Source of the DNA: an uncultured Bacilli bacterium
Lineage (GTDB): Bacteria > Bacillota_I > Bacilli_A > RFN20 > CAG-288
Length of the DNA stretch: 64,000 nucleotides
Direction: 5' to 3'
NCBI GenBank assembly: GCA_944332485.1
Contig: CALVKB010000002.1
Span: 11,044 to 75,043 of the forward strand
Positions 1 to 41,121 of the stretch are shown in pieces (the stretch's first letter is position 1; each line of letters opens with the position of its first letter). Both the position numbers and the translations under genes were made by a program. The notes under the pieces are model-generated. The model was not told the origin of the DNA. It searched no databases and worked only from the letters and a program-made list of their open reading frames with translations.

Positions 1-188
1 CTTTAAATAAAGGTGAGAATTATTCACTTGAAATTTACATCGACAATAGTGCAATAGAGATATTTTTAAACAATTACAAGGACTCAATATCCTTATTGAG
101 TTTTTCAAAAGGTGACGGCTTTGAAATAATACCAAAACAAGATATCGATTTATCAATTCAAATTGCAGATTTCGATTCAGCAAAATAA
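1..188 (+). CDS. 3' end (partial) of an upstream gene; C-terminal beta-sandwich resembling GH32 sucrose-6-phosphate hydrolase / beta-fructofuranosidase
   Basis: Frame 3 is open from the window edge to TAA at 186-188. The translation ...NKGENYSLEIYIDNSAIEIFLNNYKDSISLLSF... resembles the GH32 C-terminal LxxFVDRSSVEVFxNDG motif. Confidence 0.4.
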   Translation, partial: LNKGENYSLEIYIDNSAIEIFLNNYKDSISLLSFSKGDGFEIIPKQDIDLSIQIADFDSAK

Positions 189-330
189 ATTGTCAATTTA
201 TTCTTACACGCTTTAATAAAGTAAAATTTATATTAGAACAACCACACTTTATTCAAATTTCATACCATGAAAAAGAATAAATTTTCTCTTGCAAAAATCT
301 ATTAATATTGATAACATTAATTAAGTGTCT

Positions 331-406
331 GGTCCGTTAGCTCAGTTGGTAGAGCAACTGACTCTTAATCAGTGGGTCAAAGGTTCGAGCCCTTTACGGA
401 CCACCA
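331..406 (+). tRNA. tRNA-Lys (anticodon CTT)
   Basis: Cloverleaf read by eye: acceptor GGTCCGT/ACGGACC, D-arm GCTC-AGTTGGTA-GAGC, anticodon stem ACTGA/TCAGT with loop CTCTTAA (U33, CTT at 34-36, A37), T-arm AAAGG-TTCGAGC-CCTTT, encoded CCA. Confidence 0.85.
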
Positions 407-645
407 TTAGAGTTAAGTATAGTCGATACGAAAGTATTGGCTGTTTTTTTCATTTCTAGGGATAAATACTGCAAATATTAATGATTTTATTGGTATTTTG
501 GCCCTAGAAATAGAAAAAGTAGAAGATATATCTATAGTAACAATAATATATATATAAAATCAAATCGTTATTATTATTAATTGTTAAACTACTACTTACT
601 ATATATAGGCATATATAAGAATATGTATTTTTTCAAGTATACCCC

Positions 646-671
646 CACGTGATACGTGACAAACGTGACAC
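646..671 (+). promoter_or_regulatory. Direct repeats of ACGTGA(C/T) (CACGTGATACGTGACAAACGTGACAC); a fourth ACGTG overlaps the -35 at 752-756. Candidate operator for the adjacent XRE repressor.
   Basis: Three tandem ACGTGA(T/C)A units plus a palindromic CACGTG, 170 bp upstream of the xre gene. Confidence 0.35.
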
Positions 672-755
672 TTTTTTATGACCATTTCTTTTTTATAAAA
701 TAAAGGATTAAAATATATTTAATTCAACCTATAGGTTGATTTTTTATCAAACGTG

Positions 756-784
756 TTGACAATTTGACGAGTGGGGTGTATACT
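756..784 (+). promoter_or_regulatory. Near-consensus sigma70-type promoter (TTGACA-17 nt-TATACT) driving the xre-immA operon
   Basis: TTGACA at 756-761, a 17-nt spacer and TATACT at 779-784; RBS AAAGGAG 8 nt before the ATG at 841. Confidence 0.6.
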
Positions 785-840
785 GTGCTTGTAATCTAAG
801 AAATGACGTCAAAAATAATGATTACAAAAGGAGCGAAAAT

Positions 841-1200
841 ATGGGATACACAAAATTCGGAAAAATAGTTAGAAAAGAAATGATTGACCATGATGAAAAC
901 TTATTATCAATTGCTCAATTATTAGGCGTTACTACGTCTTTTGTTTCTGCTGTTTTAACAGGTGGTAAAAGTGTACCAGATAATTGGGTAGATGAATTAT
1001 CTAAACATTATGGTCTAAAAGGCTCTAAATATGATGAGCTTTACGATGCATATTGTGAAAATAAGAAGAATATTAGAATTGATGTTGAAAATGTTCCGTT
1101 AACTCAAAAGAAGTTGGCATTACAATTTCAAAGAAAGCTTCCTGAATTAGATGAAGATGAGATTCAATCTATCTTCGATATTTTAAAGGAGGATAAGTAA
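841..1200 (+). CDS. XRE-family helix-turn-helix transcriptional regulator (ImmR-like repressor)
   Basis: N-terminal HTH (LLSIAQLLGVTTSFVSAVLTGGK). The stop overlaps the start of the ImmA-like gene (ATG at 1200). Confidence 0.7.
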   Translation: MGYTKFGKIVRKEMIDHDENLLSIAQLLGVTTSFVSAVLTGGKSVPDNWVDELSKHYGLKGSKYDELYDAYCENKKNIRIDVENVPLTQKKLALQFQRKLPELDEDEIQSIFDILKEDK

Positions 1201-1769
1201 TGGATTATGAATCAAGATTATCTTTGAGCAGAATACAGGTAAGAGAAATATCTAAATTTGCTAGAAGGATGTTAAAAACTAAAACTGTTAAATTTCCAGT
1301 TTTAAAGGCGCTTGAAAAGTTAATAGATAAATTCCCTAATAATCTTTATTATCGTATTTTGCCCGATGATGAATTTGAGACAAATGTAATGGCAGAATTA
1401 GTTCCAGAAGGCAACGATGTTTACTGCATTAAAATACGTGAAACAGTATATGAAAAAGCAGTAAATGGTGATAGAGCTAGTCTGGGATTTATTTGCCATG
1501 AAATGTGTCATTTTATCTTGATTCATATATTTGATGCTGGCCCAGTAATGTATGTGAATGAAAGCGGGTTAGCTTATGCAAGAAGTTTTAAAGATAAAGA
1601 ATTGCCACGATATAAAAGTATGGAATGGCAAGCTATGGCACTTTGTGGGGAGATAATGATCCCTTACGAAAAATGCAAAGATTATTCATTTAAACAAATT
1701 GTCAGTAGAACTTATAGTTCTGATGAACAAACTAAATATTTCTTAAGATGGGTAGTTAAACCAGAATAG
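1200..1769 (+). CDS. ImmA/IrrE-family zinc metallopeptidase (COG2856-like anti-repressor)
   Basis: HEXXH motif in GFICHEMCHFILIH; gene order XRE-ImmA is typical of phage/ICE immunity modules. Confidence 0.7.
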   Translation: MDYESRLSLSRIQVREISKFARRMLKTKTVKFPVLKALEKLIDKFPNNLYYRILPDDEFETNVMAELVPEGNDVYCIKIRETVYEKAVNGDRASLGFICHEMCHFILIHIFDAGPVMYVNESGLAYARSFKDKELPRYKSMEWQAMALCGEIMIPYEKCKDYSFKQIVSRTYSSDEQTKYFLRWVVKPE

Positions 1770-1968
1770 TATTTATAGTAATTAAATATCTTAATTGAAA
1801 TAAAAAAGACTCAAATCATTGCAGTGATTTGAGCCGTTTAGACAGCATGCTATGATGCCATCTTCAGAAAATACATTATAGCACAACTGTCTTAAAAATA
1901 TCAACTCCTTTGCGAGATTTCCTCGTCAGAAAGGCAAGAAAAATTTTTAAATACAGGAGTTTACTATT

Positions 1969-2655
1969 ATGTACAAAAATGAAAATGATGTAGTTGAAGA
2001 TTCGTTCCAAGCGTTCTTGGTGGAAGGAGCGAACTTCACTGAAATTGAGGAATATCCGATAATTGAAGATTGGATGATTCCAGAAGTTCCGCCAAAAAAG
2101 ATTATGCCTTTTGATAAAGCATTAAATTATCAAGGCGATTTAAGTGATGTATATGTCTGCACATATGCTAGGGATTGTACTTTTGAAAGAGTAAGAAGAT
2201 ACCCAAAGAAATATTTGAACTTTTTCAAAAGATGTGCTGGGCTAATAGGATTTGATTATAGCATACATTCGGATATGCCGATAGTCAAACAAAAGGCCCA
2301 AATGAACGATAATTTATCATTATCATTTTATTATGGAAAACAAGGTAATAATCTTATTCCAAATATAAGATATGGTATTGATGAATTAGCTGATGAATTC
2401 TTAAGTGCTATTCCTAAGCATACATTGATTGCAGTAGGCACACACGGATTCATTAAAGAGACATACAAAAAAGCTGAATGGTATTGTTTCTTAGAAAAAA
2501 TTATAAGTGCATTAGAACCATCAGGTATCATTGCTTATGGTAAACTTAGTGGAAATATCTTTAAAGATTTTGAAGAAAAGTGTAAGTTTTATTATTATGA
2601 ACCATGGATCTACTCTAATCGTAAGAAAAAAGGAGGAGATTCAGATGGCAACTAA
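1969..2655 (+). CDS. hypothetical protein (228 aa), first gene of a translationally coupled trio
   Basis: Intact ORF with RBS AGGAG. No motif recognised with confidence (possibly DUF4417-like). Its stop overlaps the next start by 11 nt. Confidence 0.5.
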   Translation: MYKNENDVVEDSFQAFLVEGANFTEIEEYPIIEDWMIPEVPPKKIMPFDKALNYQGDLSDVYVCTYARDCTFERVRRYPKKYLNFFKRCAGLIGFDYSIHSDMPIVKQKAQMNDNLSLSFYYGKQGNNLIPNIRYGIDELADEFLSAIPKHTLIAVGTHGFIKETYKKAEWYCFLEKIISALEPSGIIAYGKLSGNIFKDFEEKCKFYYYEPWIYSNRKKKGGDSDGN

Positions 2656-3025
2656 AGGTGCAAGTTATAGATATGGAAACACTAAGGGTTCAAATCATCA
2701 AGGAAAAGCAACTGAACATATTAACTATGCTTGGGCTAAAGCTTTTAATAAAGGCGGATTAGATAGACATTTTAGAGATCATGGCAAAGAATTTGATTGT
2801 AAGACTAAAGAAGAATTTGAAGCTAAAGCTTTGAAATTTGCTAATACAGTTGATCGAGAAAATTGTAAAAGTGTTATTGATAAAAATGGCACAACGTATA
2901 AATATAATCCTAAGACCAATGTGTTGGTAGAAGTTACAAAAGATGGCTATATAGTGTCATATAGGCATTATGGTAAGAGCATATGGTATATTTCTAAGAA
3001 AGGAGAAAAGAAATGGATAAAATAA
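2645..3025 (+). CDS. small basic His-rich hypothetical protein (126 aa; start revised to the ATG after AAAGGAGGA)
   Basis: Strong RBS aaaggaggagattcagATG at 2645. Motif GGLDRHFRDHGKEF...YKYNPKTNVLVEVTKDGYIVSYRHYG resembles small standalone nuclease/toxin-like domains (unverified). Confidence 0.5.
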   Translation: MATKGASYRYGNTKGSNHQGKATEHINYAWAKAFNKGGLDRHFRDHGKEFDCKTKEEFEAKALKFANTVDRENCKSVIDKNGTTYKYNPKTNVLVEVTKDGYIVSYRHYGKSIWYISKKGEKKWIK

Positions 3026-3516
3026 ATAAAAAATTTAAACCAATGATGTGTCCTGTCTGCGATGGCATGTATTTTTCAAGGCCAAATAAAAATTCATTCG
3101 ATGAAGATTTAGAAGAATATTTAAATGGTGAAGTACAATGTAGGCATTGCGGATGGATTTATGATTTGCATCAAGCTGAAAATCCTGATTCTAAAGAAGG
3201 ATTCAATGAAATGTCAGTTAATGAATATAAGGAATGGTTTGATAACAAAATTAAAGAAAACCCAAACTATGATTATTTTGAAGAACATATGCCTGAACCA
3301 ACGCCGCATAAATGTCCTGTTTGTGGAGAATTTGAATTTGCTGATGAATTATCATCTGATATATGCCCAGTTTGTGGTTGGGAAGATACTGGGTTTGAAG
3401 ATATGCCTGATGAAAAGCCTAGTGAATATATGATGTCATTTAATGAAAGATTTTCTTGGTTTAAAGAAAAAAGAAAAAATAATCCTAAATATAGATGGGA
3501 CAAGGATGATGATTAA
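3013..3516 (+). CDS. cysteine-rich protein with tandem CPCC-type zinc-ribbon motifs
   Basis: Motifs CPVCDG...CRHCGWIYDL and CPVCGEF...CPVCGWEDTGFEDMP match the CPCC-family pattern (C-P-x-C ... C-x-x-C-x-W-E-D). The start overlaps the upstream stop. Confidence 0.55.
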   Translation: MDKINKKFKPMMCPVCDGMYFSRPNKNSFDEDLEEYLNGEVQCRHCGWIYDLHQAENPDSKEGFNEMSVNEYKEWFDNKIKENPNYDYFEEHMPEPTPHKCPVCGEFEFADELSSDICPVCGWEDTGFEDMPDEKPSEYMMSFNERFSWFKEKRKNNPKYRWDKDDD

Positions 3517-3791
3517 AAAAATGACTCACTGCAAATAGATTAATTTCTAAATGTGGTGAGTCTTTTTAATTGTATTATAAAATTTGATAACACTAGTCAA
3601 GTATAAAATTAAGTAAAATTGTTTGAATTTTTTCCATAACAAAAGATTATCTAATTTACTAGACGCTTTAATTTTTCATTAATAAATCTTTCAATTAAAA
3701 CAACAAGTTTAGTCAATCTACTTTCAAAATATAAGAAAATTTAGATGCTAAAGCGTAATAATAACTATCAATTAAAAAGCAAAGTGATAAT

Positions 3792-3985
3792 ATGAAATGG
3801 GATTACAAAGCTGTAAATATAGTTTATGGTTTAAAACTGGCAGTAGTATAGAAACACTTTTTCAAGAAACTCTGGAACAATATGCTAGAAATGGATGGGA
3901 GTTAGTCACATTCCAATTCTATGATGCTAAATTTATGTTAGTTTTAAAAAAATTAATTTTGGTTTTTTTTAGCAAGTTTAATTGA
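3792..3985 (+). pseudogene. DUF4177-family gene disrupted by a frameshift
   Basis: ATG at 3792 encodes MKWDYKAVNIVYGLKLAVV then TAG. The +2 frame continues ...SIETLFQETLEQYARNGWELVTFQ...FMLVLKK, matching the DUF4177 pattern (MKWEYK...GWELVsv...FKR). Confidence 0.5.
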
Positions 3986-4045
3986 TTAGGTAGCATTTTT
4001 TTATACCGCACATTTCAAAAAATAAAATATAAGTGTGAAAAGAAA

Positions 4046-4520
4046 ATGAAAAAGTATGAAGATTCCTTTTGAAACAAAATCGAAGATTTGCATAACAACC
4101 AGGGAATTAGTATTACAAAATTATCAAAAGATTATCATTTTGATAAACAAACCTATTAAAATTGGTGTGTTAAAAAAAATACGCAAAATAAAGATGAATA
4201 AGATGAAATAATTTTCGATAATCTTGATGATGCTATGAAAGAAATTCTCAAATTAAGACAAACAATTAAAATTGAAAGAGAGAAGGTAAGAGTTTTAAAA
4301 AAAGTAAAGGCAATTGTTCAAGAAGATACAGACTTGCAACATTAAAAGAAATCATTAGCGACAGTTTTCTTTCAATTAGAAGTCTTTATTCCATATTTGA
4401 ATACAATAGAAGAACTTTTTACAATAATTTTGAAAAGAAAAAGAAGTATCTGAAACAAGAAAAACTATCAAAGACTTAACAATTGCCGAATTAGAAGCAA
4501 GTCACAACAAATTTAATAAT
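4046..4520 (+). mobile_element. IS3-family transposase remnant (OrfA region and start of OrfB), with multiple stops and frameshifts
   Basis: Frames give KIEDLHNNQGISITKLSKDYHFDKQTY*NWCVKK (IS3 OrfA HTH, in-frame stop) and leucine-zipper-like ...LKLRQTIKIEREKVRVLKKVKAI..., then YSIFEYNRRTFYNNF (OrfB N-terminus). No DDE domain follows, because the ATPase gene starts at 4523. Confidence 0.6.
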
Positions 4521-4522
4521 GT

Positions 4523-7006
4523 CTAAGTTAAACGTGGTTCTTCAAATTCAAATTTTTTTAAAATTATCTTCCTATATACGTAACTTTTATATTTAAGCAA
4601 AAATCTAAACAAAAACAACAATGAGACTACTAAAACAGGCACTGAAATTAAATAGATTAATATACTCATCCACATGTTGAAATTCAATGTGGTTACATCA
4701 ATTCCAGAGATTTCATATGTCTTATCTTTAAGCACAACAGGTCCGACAAAAACATATATAAAAGCAATTATGATAACTCCAAGAATTATCATCAAAGACC
4801 ATTTGTTAAATGGATAGGAAATTATAAACAACAATGTCCAATTAACAAACAACATACCTATGACAATCGAAGTATTAAGCCCACATGTAAGAACATCGTT
4901 TGCGTTTCCTATAACTGCAATTCCACTGAAGAAATTTGAATAATTCATCAGTAATCCCGCAACAACAACAAAGCACATTCCTATACACCCAGGGAAACTT
5001 TCAAATATCATCTTTTTATAAAAGTCCTTTTTAATCAAAGCATCGTTTGGTCTTAATGCTAGCAAAACACCAGGAACACCTATTCCACATACACTTATCA
5101 AATAAAGGTTGTTCGTTGTAAACATGGATGTGACATTCATCGTCAATCCAAGTATGTTGGTTAAAAATGTTATAAATATACTGAAGAAAGTTCTACTGAG
5201 AAACAAAGATGAACTAGCTTGAATATTATTGATGACTTGTCTTCCTTGTTTAACAACAAATGGCAGTCTGTTAAAATCGTTATCAAGCAAAGTGATGTCA
5301 GCTAAACTCTTTGCAGCTTGACTACCTTCTCCCATAGCAATTGCACAATCAGATTTTTTCAAAGCTAACAAATCGTTGACTCCATCACCTGTCATTCCAA
5401 CATAACTTCCATGCTTTTTCAATTCATCAACAATAACTTCTTTCTGTTCAGGTGAAACTCTGGCAAAAATAGAATATTTTAAAGCTAGTCTTCTTGTTTC
5501 CTCTAAATCGACATTTTGTAAACTAATGCCGTTTTTATATTCCATAAATCCGACTCTTTTAGCTATCTGTTGCACAGTTTGCAAATTATCTCCAGAGATA
5601 ATTTTCAAGTTCACTTCATTTTTATAAAACCATTCTAGAGTATTTTTAACATTCTTTCTCAACTCTTCCAAAATAACGATTACACTTATTAATTTTGTTT
5701 TATCATTATCTTTTTCAACAAAAAATAAAACTCGTTTGCCGCCATCTCTATACTTTGCTAATAAATTGGTAATTTCTTTATTATTTTTAAAATCAAATAC
5801 ATACTCAGGAGCACCTAATATGTATTCAACATTTTCAATCTTCATTTTGCTACATTTTGAAACTGAATCAAATTCACAAACTTCACTAACATTTAGATGT
5901 TCATATTCCTTATTAAAATAAATTTGTAAACTTTGCATCGTTAAATTAGCATCAGCAAAATTATGAACAAAATTATTCATGATATTTTCATAATTTCGAT
6001 CTTTTGACAAATATAAAATATTCTCAACTGTCAATTTATTGGTGGTTAACGTTCCTGTTTTATCCAAACAAAGACAGTCGACTCTCGCTAAGTTCTCTAT
6101 GCTGTAAAGATTATTCACCAAAGTTTTCTTTCTTGCTAAACTGATAACACCTTTTGCCAAAGCCACACTTGTGAGTAAAAACAACCCACTTGGAATCATT
6201 CCAACAACACCACCTGCTGTTTTACTAATGGCATAGGATAAAGGATTATCAAAAGCTAAAATAGGAGTATTGAAATCACCCTGTGGATGCAAAAAATAAT
6301 TATTATAAAAAGCCCAAATAGCTAAAGGTATCAAAATAATCGTTATTATTTTTATCAACTTATTCAATGTTTTGAAAATAGAGGAATTGATGGATTTATG
6401 TTTTTTTGTTTTGTTTTGTAAATTTGATATATATGTTCCATCACCAACTTTTGTTGTTAACATATATCCACTTCCTTTGATAACATATGACCCTGATAAC
6501 AAAAGATCTTCTTTTTTCTTATGCACATCATTGGCTTCACCAGTTAACATGCTCTCATCAACGAACACTTCACCTTGAAGCAAAACACCATCAACAACAA
6601 TCTGTTGCCCGCTTTTAATAAATAATACATCGTTCAAAACAACATCTTCTTTATCAATAGATGTTTTCTTATCATTTCTTACAACTTCAATTTTAGAATC
6701 CGAAACTAATTTCAATTTTTCAATCTGCTTTTTAGCTCTTATCTCTTGAATAATTGCAATCAAAGTATTCAAAACAACAATGACAAAAAAGAATGTCTGA
6801 AAATACCTTTGGCAGATGATCAAAACAATGAAAATTGCAAAAAGTAAAATGTTGAAAAATGTAAAGACATTTCTAAAAACAATATTCAAATAATCGTGTT
6901 GTTTTTTTAATTTAGTTTTATTTGTATTGCCACTTGCAATTTGTTTATAAACTTCTTCATCAGTCAAAGATTGAACTTTATTGCTTTTATAAGTGAACTG
7001 CATCAT
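4523..7006 (-). CDS. cation-transporting P-type ATPase (P2-type, PacL-like), paralog 2
   Basis: CLCLDKTGTLT phosphorylation site, TGDGVNDLLALK hinge, multiple TM helices. The actuator motif reads TGEA instead of TGES. Confidence 0.9.
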   Translation of the reverse strand: MMQFTYKSNKVQSLTDEEVYKQIASGNTNKTKLKKQHDYLNIVFRNVFTFFNILLFAIFIVLIICQRYFQTFFFVIVVLNTLIAIIQEIRAKKQIEKLKLVSDSKIEVVRNDKKTSIDKEDVVLNDVLFIKSGQQIVVDGVLLQGEVFVDESMLTGEANDVHKKKEDLLLSGSYVIKGSGYMLTTKVGDGTYISNLQNKTKKHKSINSSIFKTLNKLIKIITIILIPLAIWAFYNNYFLHPQGDFNTPILAFDNPLSYAISKTAGGVVGMIPSGLFLLTSVALAKGVISLARKKTLVNNLYSIENLARVDCLCLDKTGTLTTNKLTVENILYLSKDRNYENIMNNFVHNFADANLTMQSLQIYFNKEYEHLNVSEVCEFDSVSKCSKMKIENVEYILGAPEYVFDFKNNKEITNLLAKYRDGGKRVLFFVEKDNDKTKLISVIVILEELRKNVKNTLEWFYKNEVNLKIISGDNLQTVQQIAKRVGFMEYKNGISLQNVDLEETRRLALKYSIFARVSPEQKEVIVDELKKHGSYVGMTGDGVNDLLALKKSDCAIAMGEGSQAAKSLADITLLDNDFNRLPFVVKQGRQVINNIQASSSLFLSRTFFSIFITFLTNILGLTMNVTSMFTTNNLYLISVCGIGVPGVLLALRPNDALIKKDFYKKMIFESFPGCIGMCFVVVAGLLMNYSNFFSGIAVIGNANDVLTCGLNTSIVIGMLFVNWTLLFIISYPFNKWSLMIILGVIIIAFIYVFVGPVVLKDKTYEISGIDVTTLNFNMWMSILIYLISVPVLVVSLLFLFRFLLKYKSYVYRKIILKKFEFEEPRLT

Positions 7007-37805: not shown

Positions 37806-38942
37806 TTAGTTTTGATAATATCTAACTGGTGTTATCAATTGCAGATTGCTCTCATCGCTTGAGACAACTCTGAACATTCTAACTTCACCGGAGAACAAGA
37901 TTGTAATATCATCACTTGTATGAGCTTTACAAGCATCTTTGACAAAATCTGCGTTGAAGTAGATTGTGAACTTATCACCTTCGAATTCGCAGTTATCCAA
38001 TCTTTCAACAGAATAACCATAAGATGGACTTCTTGATGAGATTTCGACCTTACTACCATCATAGACTAATTTTGCATTCTTAATGATACTTTTATCATCA
38101 CCGGAAACTATACAAACTCTATCTAAAATATCGACAAGTTCCTTTGAGGAACATTTAAGTTTATATGGGTAAACACTAGGTAAGATTTTTTCTGCTTCTG
38201 GGAATTCACCTGGAATTGTCTTTGCACTAATTGTGACAGAACCAACAGTGAAGCTAACTTTATCAGCACCAACACGGATTCTAACAACTGGAAGATGTTC
38301 CAATTTGTTTATAACTGATAAAACTTTCAATGAGCAGTTGAAAGAGACCATGACATTGCTTTGTAAAGGTAATGTTTTTCTAGCTAATCTGCAGGTGTCA
38401 GAAGCTGTGAAGGAAATCTTATGATCAAAACATTTGATGTTGATTCCTAAAAACATATCTCTGTTACTTTTTTGTGCAACAGCAAAGTAAGTTGCATCAT
38501 ACAATGTCTTGAAGTCTTCTGGAGAAAGTTCAATCTCTTCACCAACATGTGTACCAAGTTCAATATCAGGATATTCATTGCCAGGTTTGGTGTTGATATT
38601 GTAAGTTGTTCTATCATCGGATATTGTCAATAAAGAGGAATCCACTTGCTCAAGAGTTATCACTTCACCTGCAACTTTGGCAATAATCTCACGTGATAAT
38701 TTAGCAGGAAGTTGAATGGAACCTTCTTGAGAATCTAAAATAACTTCATTACCATCGGTATCTTTGTTGAATTGATTAACTTTGATTGTTATTTTTCCAT
38801 CAGAAGCAAGGATGTTGCATCCTTCATCTGTAATTGTTAATAAAAAGTTTAAAAAACAAGCTTCAGTAGATTTACTAGGGATTGCATCCATAGCGATGTT
38901 TAACATTTTTAATAATGATTGTTTTTTAATTACTAATTTCAT
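37806..38942 (-). CDS. dnaN: DNA polymerase III beta subunit (sliding clamp)
   Basis: 378 aa. N-terminus MKLVIKKQSLLKMLNIAMDAIPSKSTEACFLNFLLTITDEGCNILASDGKITIKV with a three-domain beta-clamp layout; divergent from dnaA. Confidence 0.8.
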   Translation of the reverse strand: MKLVIKKQSLLKMLNIAMDAIPSKSTEACFLNFLLTITDEGCNILASDGKITIKVNQFNKDTDGNEVILDSQEGSIQLPAKLSREIIAKVAGEVITLEQVDSSLLTISDDRTTYNINTKPGNEYPDIELGTHVGEEIELSPEDFKTLYDATYFAVAQKSNRDMFLGINIKCFDHKISFTASDTCRLARKTLPLQSNVMVSFNCSLKVLSVINKLEHLPVVRIRVGADKVSFTVGSVTISAKTIPGEFPEAEKILPSVYPYKLKCSSKELVDILDRVCIVSGDDKSIIKNAKLVYDGSKVEISSRSPSYGYSVERLDNCEFEGDKFTIYFNADFVKDACKAHTSDDITILFSGEVRMFRVVSSDESNLQLITPVRYYQN

Positions 38943-39099
38943 TTTATATACCTCATATAACTTAAATTATTATATCAATAATAAGTGCAATTCTTGTGGG
39001 AATGAATTTAAAAGTGAACTGATTTTTCAGAAACTGAAAGTTTAATTTAAATTATTTTTAATCTTTAAATTTTATATTCATTATTATGTTTTAATTTTC

Positions 39100-39700
39100 T
39101 GTTAATAACTCAAAAAAATGAATATATAAAGAAAAAAGGTTGTTTTGGTTGTTAGTAAATTGTTGATAATCGATATAAATTTGTTAGTAAGTCTGTTAGT
39201 AAGTTGAGTTACTAACAACTTGAAAAGGGTGAAAATTAGCTTAAAAAAGAAACTTGAAAAATTTATAAGAAAAAAATGATGAAAAAATTGTAAAAAGCAC
39301 TCCGTGAAATAATCAACTTTTATTTCACGATGAAAATAATTAAAAAACGAAGAAACAACTTAAAAATACTAACACGTTGCAAGTTAGTAACATGATTTAC
39401 TAACAACAATAAATATATAAAAATTCAAAATATTAAAAAAAAGTATCATTTTTGGATTTTTTATCAACAATTTATTCACATGAAATAAATTCGAAGTTAC
39501 AAACAAATTACCAACATGTTAGTAACTTTTAAAAAATTCGATAACACCTTTAAAATTCTTTAAAATAAATGCTTTTTTCAAATTTCAATTGTTAGTAACT
39601 TGTTGATAACTTGTTAGTAAGTGAAAAAACGATTGATAAATGATTTTTAATAGGTGAAAAAAGCACTATTTATATCGAAAAAACACGTTAGTTTTAATGT
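39100..39700. promoter_or_regulatory. oriC: DnaA-box cluster and AT-rich unwinding region between divergent dnaN and dnaA
   Basis: Perfect TGTTAGTAA at 39150, 39182, 39194, 39517, 39590 and 39612 (forward) and at 39209 and 39397 (reverse). Near copies at 39367 and 39382. TTATCAACA-type boxes at 39161 (rc), 39461 and 39601 (rc), and TTATTCACA at 39472. AT-rich stretches at 39225-39360 and 39410-39460. Confidence 0.75.
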
Positions 39701-39729
39701 TATAATTTAGAAGAAATAAGAGGTTATAT

Positions 39730-41121
39730 ATGGAAGAAGAAATCAACTCATTGGATCTTATTTGGGAAAATGTAACAAATCACTTGCAGGAAATTTTCGG
39801 ACGTCCATCATACGAAGCATATATTGAAAATATATGCCATCTTATGAAAATTGAGAAAAACAACGCCTATGTTGTTTGTGATCAAAAAGTTTCACTTAAG
39901 ATTCTCTCTCAGGATAGTCAGCTTGATAAATTCAAAAAAGCATTTGAGGAAGCAACTGGAACAAATTACAACGTTTTATTTTATTCTCAAAAAGATTACG
40001 TCAATTTAGACAAAAAGAAAGAGAAGAAAGAAACAAGCAAACCGGATCTTTTTGATCAGTACATCATCAGCCCAAAAGATACTTTTGATACTTTCGTGGT
40101 TGGTCAATCGAATAAACAAGCTTATTTAGCTTGTAATTTGCTTTGCGAAGATAAAGTTACATTTAACCAATTATTCATATATGCCGATTCTGGATTAGGA
40201 AAAACACACTTACTTTCCGCAATTTACAATAAATATAGGGAAGTTCATCCTGATAAGAAGATTAAATACGTTTGTATTAATGATTTTATAGAATTGTACA
40301 TACGATACGTCAGAGAGGAACAGAATAAAACAGGTGATGCAAAAGTAAGTGATATAAAAGATTATTTTGTTGATTTGGATTGTGTTTTATTCGATGATAT
40401 TCAATTTTTAACTGCTAAAAGAAAAACCCAAGAAGTTTTCTTCGATATATTTAACAAATTGCAGATGAGAAATGTCATAGTTGTTATGACATCAGATTGC
40501 TCACCGGATCATATTCAAGATTTAGATAAAAGATTAGTATCAAGATTTTCCTCTGGTTTATCCTGTTTTATCAAGATTCCAGAAAGATCTACAATGATCG
40601 ATATTCTCAAAAAGAAGATTGAACTTAACGGATTAGATATAAACATGTTTCCAGATGAAGTTTTGGATTACATCGCTTCTAAAAATTCCAACAACGTCAG
40701 ATTGTTGGAAGGTGCTTTGAATAGACTATTATTCTTATTAGCTTTACATAAGGATGTAGATAAAGTTGATATGAAATTTGTCCGTATGGCTTTTGAAGAT
40801 AACCGAAGTTACTCCAAAGAGCTTGATCAAGATCATGTTTTGGATGTTGAGGATATCATCTCCGAAGTTGCAAATCAGTTCAATTTGACAATAGGGCAAC
40901 TTAAATCGAAAGTTAGAACCTCACAGATTTCTTACGCACGACAAATCGCTATGTATTTATGCCGAGATCTTTTAAATGAAAGTTTGAACGATATAGGAAG
41001 AGTTTTTGGAAAAGACCATTCCACCGTTTTGGATGCTTGTAAAAAGATAACAAAAAGGATGGAAGAAGATGTCAATTTGAAAAAGACAATCAAGAAGTTG
41101 AAGGATAAATTGAAAAAATAA
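39730..41121 (+). CDS. dnaA: chromosomal replication initiator protein DnaA
   Basis: AAA+ Walker A YADSGLGKTHLL, Walker B VLFDDIQF, sensor and box VII regions, and a C-terminal DNA-binding domain (IAMYLCRDLLNESLNDIGRVFGKDHSTV). Confidence 0.95.
   Translation: MEEEINSLDLIWENVTNHLQEIFGRPSYEAYIENICHLMKIEKNNAYVVCDQKVSLKILSQDSQLDKFKKAFEEATGTNYNVLFYSQKDYVNLDKKKEKKETSKPDLFDQYIISPKDTFDTFVVGQSNKQAYLACNLLCEDKVTFNQLFIYADSGLGKTHLLSAIYNKYREVHPDKKIKYVCINDFIELYIRYVREEQNKTGDAKVSDIKDYFVDLDCVLFDDIQFLTAKRKTQEVFFDIFNKLQMRNVIVVMTSDCSPDHIQDLDKRLVSRFSSGLSCFIKIPERSTMIDILKKKIELNGLDINMFPDEVLDYIASKNSNNVRLLEGALNRLLFLLALHKDVDKVDMKFVRMAFEDNRSYSKELDQDHVLDVEDIISEVANQFNLTIGQLKSKVRTSQISYARQIAMYLCRDLLNESLNDIGRVFGKDHSTVLDACKKITKRMEEDVNLKKTIKKLKDKLKK

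Follow-up and report, generated by a model that had tools for sequence, protein, structure and literature searches.

The dnaN and dnaA genes of an uncultured gut bacterium, a low-G+C, RF39-like member of the Bacilli, lie next to each other in the 64-kb stretch of DNA analyzed here (in the following, the window) and point away from a shared spacer of 787 bp (38943-39729; 21% G+C). This spacer contains all copies of a repeated 9-mer, TGTTAGTAA or, in the opposite orientation, TTACTAACA, and it is the relationship of this 9-mer to the initiator protein DnaA that concerns us here. Both genes are strong Pfam matches, and with the standard bacterial code (table 11), the open reading frames (ORFs) of the window are uninterrupted. 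The locus comprises the following features:

37806-38942, - strand: dnaN, encoding the beta clamp of DNA polymerase III (378 aa) and read outward from the origin; Pfam PF00712, PF02767 and PF02768.
38943-39729, no strand: predicted chromosomal replication origin (oriC), the entire spacer between the divergent dnaN and dnaA, from gene context, GC skew and boxes.
39730-41121, + strand: dnaA, 463 aa; Pfam PF00308 (1e-42) and PF08299 (2e-27); aligned to the solved DnaA structures 1J1V, 3PVP and 8BTG.

Within the window, the cumulative GC skew drops from about 5 kb, bottoms at 37-39 kb beside the spacer and then climbs, the skew itself being negative left of the minimum and positive right of it. 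Because dnaN and dnaA diverge, the skew changes sign between them, DnaA-box-like sites cluster there and some segments are very A+T-rich, the spacer is very probably the oriC of this bacterium. A first-pass annotation of the same DNA had arrived at this origin and had named the skew minimum of the whole replicon as a check; the origin is borne out, as is a minimum within the 64 kb, although the intergenic region measures 787 rather than 680 bp. A second skew change is found near the left end of the window, where the skew is positive in the first 4 kb (1-5000) before turning negative up to the origin; a transfer RNA lies at 331-403. An Rfam scan of the spacer returned no RNA family. Iterons of the plasmid type, bound by a Rep protein, were considered and ruled out, since the neighbors are dnaN and dnaA and the repeat unit is 9-13 bp, as opposed to the 17-22 bp of iterons.

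All eight exact copies of the 9-mer lie within 39150-39620, on both strands (TGTTAGTAA starts at 39150, 39182, 39194, 39517, 39590 and 39612 on the + strand and at 39209 and 39397 on the - strand), and the other 63 kb hold none. The chance level was determined with 100 dinucleotide-preserving shuffles of the window, which contained 1.14 copies on average and 5 at most, so that none of the 100 reached eight. The non-random clustering described in the first-pass annotation is thereby confirmed, but its estimate of roughly five chance copies per window was too high, and instead of two near-perfect copies, we count six with one mismatch inside the spacer (39100, 39366, 39382, 39384, 39497 and 39508). 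Outside the spacer, one-mismatch copies are not enriched (35, versus about 31 expected for the whole window). Sites with at most one mismatch to the canonical DnaA box TTATCCACA number four in the 787-bp spacer, versus about 0.3 expected from the window-wide rate, and none of them is perfect.

In the following, boxes are read as 5'-TTAnnnACA-3', and the strand given is the one carrying that reading. Besides the eight exact TTACTAACA, the spacer then contains three TTATCAACA (39161, 39461 and 39601), one TTATTCACA (39472) and the intermediate forms TTACCAACA, TTACAAACA, TTATTAACA, ATACTAACA and TTAGTAACA, arranged as follows:

39100-39108, - strand: weak box TTATTAACA, one mismatch to TTACTAACA.
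39150-39169, - strand: left tandem pair with 11-bp spacing, TTACTAACA (39150-39158) and TTATCAACA (39161-39169).
39182-39202, - strand: two TTACTAACA boxes (39182-39190 and 39194-39202), the first of which is TTACCAACA or TTACCAATA in other strains.
39209-39217, + strand: TTACTAACA, converging on the 39194 box over a 6-bp gap.
39366-39405, + strand: middle cluster of ATACTAACA (39366), overlapping AGTTAGTAA/TTAGTAACA (39382-39392) and TTACTAACA (39397-39405); repeat D1.
39461-39480, + strand: canonical-like pair TTATCAACA and TTATTCACA with 11-bp spacing, the second overlapping a parS-like palindrome.
39497-39525, + strand: TTACAAACA (39497) and TTACCAACA (39508) with 11-bp spacing, abutting an opposite-strand TTACTAACA (39517-39525).
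39590-39620, - strand: dnaA-proximal triple array TTACTAACA, TTATCAACA, TTACTAACA with 11-bp spacing.

Same-strand neighbors are spaced by 11 bp in five cases (39150/39161, 39461/39472, 39497/39508, 39590/39601 and 39601/39612), which leaves a 2-bp gap and therefore aligns consecutive sites along the same helix face. The head-to-tail alternation of the 9-mer with TGTTGATAA, previously counted as occurring three times, indeed recurs at this spacing (39150/39161, 39590/39601 and 39601/39612), but the three junctions belong to two arrays. Five strains of the window's species are available for comparison: the box columns vary at 3 of 153 positions, versus 38 of 634 in the rest of the spacer (Fisher p = 0.043). 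Only a single exact box differs among the strains, being TTACCAACA in two and TTACCAATA in two others, and the three TTATCAACA are invariant.

The nearest relatives of the window's DnaA in the protein database form the clusters P0001 (99%), P0002 (67%) and P0003 (48%), all others matching at 43% or less; those with names are assigned to a Bacilli bacterium, an Erysipelotrichaceae bacterium and, for the P0008 cluster, Candidatus Enterosoma, which we take to belong to RF39. A scan of genome contigs with the DnaA protein gave a sole match of 30%, from Prevotellaceae, and a protein-database search with domain IV alone yielded four fragments only. The origins of the following relatives were compared, with <> marking divergent genes:

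L002: DnaA 67%; nrdG-nrdD-x-dnaN<>dnaA; nine exact TTACTAACA in the spacer, none within one mismatch of TTATCCACA.
L004: DnaA 48%; same layout as L002; no TTACTAACA, but TTATCCACA, TTATCAACA, TTATTCACA and TTTCCACA types and several nTTTCCACA.
L351: DnaA 37-39%; dnaN<>dnaA; six TTATCCACA and four TTATCAACA.
L131 (Candidatus Enterosoma): DnaA 40%; dnaN<>dnaA; fifteen TTATCAACA.
L129: DnaA 43%; dnaA then dnaN; seven TTATCCACA and one TTACTAACA.
L132: DnaA 41%; dnaA then dnaN; four TTATCCACA.
L130: DnaA 42%; dnaA then dnaN; two TTATCCACA.

The inverted dnaN and the single divergent spacer are common to the window, L002, L004, L131 and L351, whereas the more distant relatives L129, L130 and L132 keep the usual order. 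In every lineage compared, one TTAnnnACA 9-mer dominates the spacer upstream of dnaA, and its identity shifts by lineage. L002 contains only one further exact copy of TTACTAACA outside its spacer in 9.8 kb, and the spacer sequence is otherwise diverged from that of the window. Lying at about -110 to -165, the array nearest dnaA retains its position and orientation in the window, L002 and L004, while the box type changes: it reads TTACTAACA/TTATCAACA/TTACTAACA at -118 to -140 from the dnaA start in the window, is a triple TTACTAACA (a TTGTTAGTAAC array) at -141 to -163 in L002, and reads TTATCCACA/TTATCAACA at -102 to -112 in L004. The 17 exact copies in the window and L002 also share their flanks, with A at -2 in 16, G at -1 in 11 and A immediately 3' in 13 of them, which suggests that the true repeat unit is approximately AAGTTACTAACAA, in the extended form A-G-TTACTAACA-A. 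The A at -2 likewise precedes canonical boxes, namely 12 of 15 in L131, 6 of 7 in L129 and 3 of 4 in L132.

Some further observations concern these relatives. The L004 spacer is rich in nTTTCCACA sites between 5355 and 6000 (TGTGGAAAC, TGTGGAAAG, TGTGGAAAA), which resemble the cyanobacterial box, and this suggests that box usage drifts fast across the whole group and not just in the clade of the window. On the far side of dnaA, a dual-specificity phosphatase-like gene (PF00782; 41121-41609) overlaps the dnaA stop codon; it is kept 3' of dnaA in L004 (7408-7899), and an unrelated 260-aa ORF takes its place in L002.

We next consider the protein. The base-specific contacts of DnaA are made by residues 399, 423, 432-435 and 438-439 of domain IV (PMC5043019), of which R399 reads TTA, while the helix starting at 434 reads TnCACA (PMC5742627). 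Residues were placed on the Escherichia coli numbering via HMMER alignment to the DnaA proteins of E. coli (1J1V), Mycobacterium tuberculosis (3PVP), Bacillus subtilis (8BTG) and Aquifex aeolicus; the window's DnaA then has R399, N423, K432, D433, H434, S435, L438 and D439. For the epsilonproteobacterial box, differences at residues 435, 438 and 439 have been suggested as an explanation (PMC5043019). At position 439, the four solved proteins have H or Y, and the 228 full-length homologues have A, S, T, N, K or F, except for the P0001 and P0002 clusters, so that D439 is confined to the two TTACTAACA lineages. We conjecture that Asp439 might act as a hydrogen-bond acceptor for the amino group of the cytosine that is new at box position 4. 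N423 was ruled out as a specificity determinant, as it is also present in L004 with its canonical boxes.

The 9-mer is not restricted to these lineages. A scan of metagenome contigs for TGTTAGTAA-M-TTGTTRRTAA, which by its design selects for the motif, returned at least 120 matches. Many of those listed are 11-bp head-to-tail arrays that also hold perfect TGTGGATAA, on contigs of 35-58% G+C, and such TGTTAGTAA/TGTGGATAA arrays occur, among the matches listed, on L019, L022, L031, L041, L054, L063, L074, L077, L103, L106 and L107. Eight of the matches listed are dnaA-bearing loci; the motif pair lies at most about 150 bp from dnaA in all eight, and both of its halves are TGTTAGTAA in four. Because the scan had selected for the motif, we ran two motif-independent scans of a viral-contig collection, which were anchored on perfect TGTGGATAA and left the neighboring TGTnnnTAA free. 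Among the matches listed, this census comprises 335 distinct TGTnnnTAA neighbors at exactly 11 bp, from 216 loci, with the center triplets GGA (201), TAA (27), GTA (21), TGA (18), GCA (15), GAA (14), TAG (11), TTA (8) and few others. TAG, the center of TGTTAGTAA, makes up 11 of the 13 triple-mismatch cores, for which 27 triplets are possible, and is about as common as single-mismatch cores. This excess indicates that, across many unrelated replicons, TGTTAGTAA is specifically favored as the neighbor of canonical DnaA boxes. For instance, a 132-kb Clostridioides difficile plasmid (L253, NZ_CP149699.1, 53570-53625) carries TGTTGATAA-gc-TGTTAGTAA-gt-TGTTGATAA-ca-TGTTGATAA in 11-bp spacing beside iteron-like repeats; no feature is annotated at the site of this four-box array. 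In the searchable papers to which they were limited, full-text searches for both orientations of the 9-mer, by itself or combined with DnaA, found nothing on replication.

Three other settings came up in these scans. The plasmid-like contig L111, with few long ORFs, has nine TTACTAACA and several TTATCAACA about 250 bp from four CATCAGTTTTACTGAT iterons (5870-6010 and 6230-6330), which is the typical layout of a vegetative plasmid origin (oriV). About 25 soil-metagenome contigs of approximately 50% G+C (L011-L013, L021, L028, L032, L039, L040, L043, L052 at 5750-5820, L092 and others) share a context of about 70 nt, ...CCCACAAGAAC-TGTTAGTAACTTGTTGATAAG-TAATTC...GTCAAGCAGAGGG; they carry neither dnaA nor dnaN, and L052, the one inspected, has only small ORFs around the site. 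Finally, tandem units with two TGTTAGTAA each (TGAAACTAGTGTAGAGATCTGTGAT-TGTTAGTAACTTGTTAGTAA) occur in L051 (about 5000-5900, 20 copies of the 9-mer) and L068 (1433-1496, nine copies), which could be titration or incompatibility loci.

With regard to the window itself, TTACTAACA is probably the main DnaA box of the origin and replaces the textbook TTATCCACA there. We likewise judge it likely that both parts hold together, in that the spacer is the oriC and TTACTAACA the main duplex site of the lineage's own DnaA, read in the manner of a classical box. The first-pass annotation had left the choice between a degenerate DnaA box of this lineage and the site of a second origin-binding factor. The former is much better supported, as L002 has only TTACTAACA, canonical boxes occupy the spacer of other relatives, and the 9-mer stands in 11-bp register with perfect boxes elsewhere. 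'Degenerate', however, is the wrong word, since all 17 copies are identical across two lineages and rather constitute a sharply defined alternative. TTACTAACA retains the 5' TTA and 3' ACA ends of the classical box, and the window's DnaA retains R399, D433 and H434. Judged from these sequences, TTACTAACA would be derived from a TTATC(C/A)ACA ancestor, the replacement being complete in L002 and nearly complete in the window, where three TTATCAACA are left.

Several points weigh against this interpretation. TTACTAACA does not conform to the consensus TTWTNCACA and mismatches TTATCCACA at its three central positions, 4, 5 and 6, of which 4 and 6 are specified and are read by E. coli DnaA (TnCACA; PMC5742627). 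The association between D439 and the box amounts to one evolutionary event, because the P0001 and P0002 lineages are sisters; when the full-length search was repeated with P0002, the TTACTAACA clade gained no additional member, so the co-variation of protein and box remains a single event. TGTTAGTAA arrays also adjoin the dnaA genes of unrelated organisms with a DnaA that carries H or Y at 439, and a changed DnaA may therefore be unnecessary. The 9-mer further occurs twice in the convergent form TGTTAGTAA-N6-TTACTAACA (39194-39217 and, with the one-mismatch left arm AGTTAGTAA, 39382-39405), as would suit a dimeric regulator. Lastly, the GC-skew test spans 64 kb and not the whole replicon, and a DnaA-trio scan beside the boxes found no clear run.

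The alternative that survives best invokes a DnaA of unchanged specificity, for which the TTACTAACA copies would be low-affinity, cooperativity-dependent sites that are filled only by adenosine triphosphate-bound DnaA (ATP-DnaA) spreading from the stronger TTATCAACA or TTATTCACA anchors, as at the I, tau and C sites of E. coli, with D439 being irrelevant. It would explain why every TTATCAACA of the window on the TGT...TAA strand has a TTACTAACA at 11 bp, why the 9-mer is a minority member of perfect-box arrays in replicons whose hosts have ordinary DnaA, and why TTACTAACA has three mismatches to the consensus. It does not account for L002, whose nine TTACTAACA come without any anchor within one mismatch of the consensus. 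Moreover, known low-affinity sites are heterogeneous, whereas here the 9 bp are the same in all 17 copies and the flanks are shared, and the sharp outlier position of TAG among the triple-mismatch cores speaks for specific recognition and not for a tolerance of degenerate sites. We therefore regard this alternative as unlikely.

Even less probable is a second origin-binding protein, either a regulator or an accessory initiator, that recognizes TGTTAGTAA in place of DnaA. The existence of two discrete site classes in one origin, exact TTACTAACA and TTATCAACA-type, would fit such a protein, as would the two convergent, palindrome-like pairs with their 6-bp gap (repeat D1) and the alteration of positions that E. 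coli DnaA reads. Yet it would leave the L002 origin without a DnaA box, even though L002 encodes DnaA, and the 9-mer takes the place of canonical boxes at a homologous position. The 11-bp register with perfect boxes across replicons of 35-58% G+C and on the C. difficile plasmid would demand a universal protein; the flank preference is common to TTACTAACA and canonical boxes; intermediates are present (TTACCAACA, TTACAAACA and TTATTAACA); and no candidate gene is conserved beside the origin. That the repeats are single-stranded unwinding elements of the DnaA-trio type rather than duplex boxes, as suggested by the complementarity of TTA-CTA to 3'-AAT-GAT-5', which makes the first six bases fit the trio consensus 3'-[G/A]A[T/A]-5' (PMC7561715) on the complementary strand, is highly improbable in view of an 11-bp period that is no multiple of 3, copies on both strands spread over 470 bp, a conserved unit that is the full 9-13-mer with TTA...ACA box ends, and the lack of an extended run in the trio scan.

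If TTACTAACA is indeed the main DnaA box, initiation at this origin might proceed as follows. Arg399 would read the retained 5' TTA in the minor groove and the recognition helix the retained 3' ACA in the major groove, while the changed center, from TCC to CTA, would be fitted by an altered recognition helix, in which H439 to Asp is the sole lineage-specific change at a known base-contact position. Boxes 11 bp apart, with their 2-bp gaps, would nucleate a DnaA oligomer on one helix face, and the few TTATCAACA boxes would be older, canonical-type members of the same arrays. The growing oligomer would then open the adjoining A+T-rich stretch, and through the dnaA-proximal triple array, the dnaA promoter is probably autoregulated as well. 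The spacer features other than the boxes are:

39041-39137, no strand: best candidate unwinding region; holds the least stable 40-mer (39048-39087) and an A-rich, trio-like run (39126-39137), followed by GG and the left box pair.
39302-39330, - strand: terminator-like hairpin facing dnaN, a 10-11-bp stem followed by a T-run; the palindrome is kept in L002 (5515-5537).
39408-39447, no strand: second very unstable A+T-rich segment, between box clusters, from the stability scan.
39698-39706, + strand: extended -10-like TGTTATAAT, 24 nt 5' of the dnaA ATG, read from the sequence.

The least stable 40-mers of the spacer are found at 39048-39087, within the top 0.1% of the window, and at 39408-39447. 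The pure A/T runs proposed earlier as unwinding elements (39225-39360 and 39410-39460) match them in part, the second overlapping 39408-39447; they are not pure, as a G+C-bearing hairpin lies within 39225-39360. Inference from stability and layout would favor 39041-39137, on the dnaN side, as the best candidate for duplex opening. The junction AAAGG-TTGTTAGTAAAT is common to the window and L002. In the window, the trio scan scores best at the 39150 box, with a 12-13-nt spacer and four A-centered triplets, which is weak evidence in DNA of 21% G+C; the same holds for L002 in its A+T-rich DNA, where the 5279 box is followed by a 3-nt spacer, five A-centered triplets and an A+T run. The hairpin (fold energy -10.1 kcal/mol, z = -2.1) may insulate dnaN or end an origin transcript. 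TGTTATAAT is the probable dnaA promoter by its sequence and position; a scan with the sigma-70 consensus found fewer promoter-like sites than in shuffles and did not call it.

Two further repeats were noticed in the spacers. A parS-like palindrome, TTTCAC(N0-2)RTGAAA, occurs in the four closest lineages, namely the window (39323-39335 and 39473-39485), L002 (5532-5545), L004 (5511-5522) and L351 (3564-3575), where it is a perfect ATTTCACGTGAAAT, and is found in none of L129-L132; its loose consensus is not enriched across the window. As one palindrome overlaps the canonical-like TTATTCACA, this box may be half a ParB-type site. Moreover, GGTGAAAAAA repeats (39621-39629 and 39653-39662) follow the proximal box array and precede the dnaA promoter, and L004 has GGTGAAA(A/G) repeats at the matching place (5719-5740); both may be weak boxes of the TTTTCAC type.

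As a broader and more tentative proposal, which we hold to be possible but doubtful, TTACTAACA may be no degenerate site but another discrete optimum in the recognition of DNA by DnaA, which chromosomes, plasmids and phage-like elements of many phyla employ as a minority box within phased arrays, and the RF39-like clade may have re-coded its whole origin for it, together with a His/Ser-to-Asp change at 439. This would be a natural and recent case of an initiator and its origin switching specificity together. Should D439 be responsible, the recognition code of DnaA would gain an entry for box positions 4-6 that is simple and can be tested, and the same question applies to the epsilonproteobacterial box. 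The occurrence of the 9-mer in phase with perfect boxes in unrelated replicons suggests a class of sites that is without description in searchable papers. There is also a practical aspect, as origin finders rate boxes by how far they depart from TTATCCACA or from one of a few lineage-specific motifs (PMC10225481): a box with three mismatches would be undercounted or missed by them, as for L002, and this concerns the uncultured, reduced-genome gut Bacilli of the RF39 group.

How does this origin compare with known systems? The basal unwinding system of B. subtilis consists of tandem boxes, a GC cluster, DnaA-trios and A+T-rich DNA (PMC8287927), and the window's layout may resemble it, in that the leftmost pair (39150, 39161) faces GG, an A-rich run and the least stable DNA, a junction that is kept in L002. 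By contrast, the trio run of the window is short, consists of A only and follows a 12-13-bp spacer, and the origin is one spacer between divergent dnaN and dnaA rather than a bipartite rpmH-dnaA-dnaN arrangement. The low-affinity I, tau and C sites of E. coli oriC are likewise sites with at least three mismatches, interleaved with stronger boxes at 2-bp spacing; they are, however, heterogeneous and individually weak, whereas here one exact 9-mer is repeated, is conserved between lineages and, in L002, can constitute the whole origin. With the canonical box, TTATCCACA or TTWTNCACA in the oriC of E. coli, B. subtilis and C. difficile, TTACTAACA has in common that it is an asymmetric 9-bp site, clustered on both strands beside dnaA, with a TTA 5' end (R399), an ACA 3' end, 2-bp-spaced head-to-tail arrays and a flank preference. 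It differs in its center, CTA versus TCC, which alters positions 4 and 6 as read in E. coli, and in that the window's origin holds no perfect TTATCCACA.

The closest parallels are the lineage-specific boxes, namely TTTTCCACA in Cyanobacteria, TCATTCACN with its TTCAC core in Epsilonproteobacteria, TTGTCCACA in Actinobacteria and the 12-mer AAACCTACCACC in Thermotoga (PMC10225481; PMC5043019), in each of which, as would be the case here, the boxes at an entire lineage's origin deviate from the E. coli consensus. Since such boxes are already established, TTACTAACA is not a new kind of element. Still, the listed 9-mers keep CAC at positions 6-8 and the Thermotoga box is a different 12-mer, whereas the window's box has AAC and a changed position 4; the frequent residues at 439 of epsilonproteobacterial DnaA are K, H and Y (PMC5043019), whereas D439 is acidic; and, unlike those boxes, TTACTAACA is also a minority box of numerous unrelated replicons. 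What is unusual here is thus the change of the CAC core to AAC together with that of position 4, the acidic residue at 439, and the presence of the same 9-mer in phase with perfect boxes across unrelated replicons.

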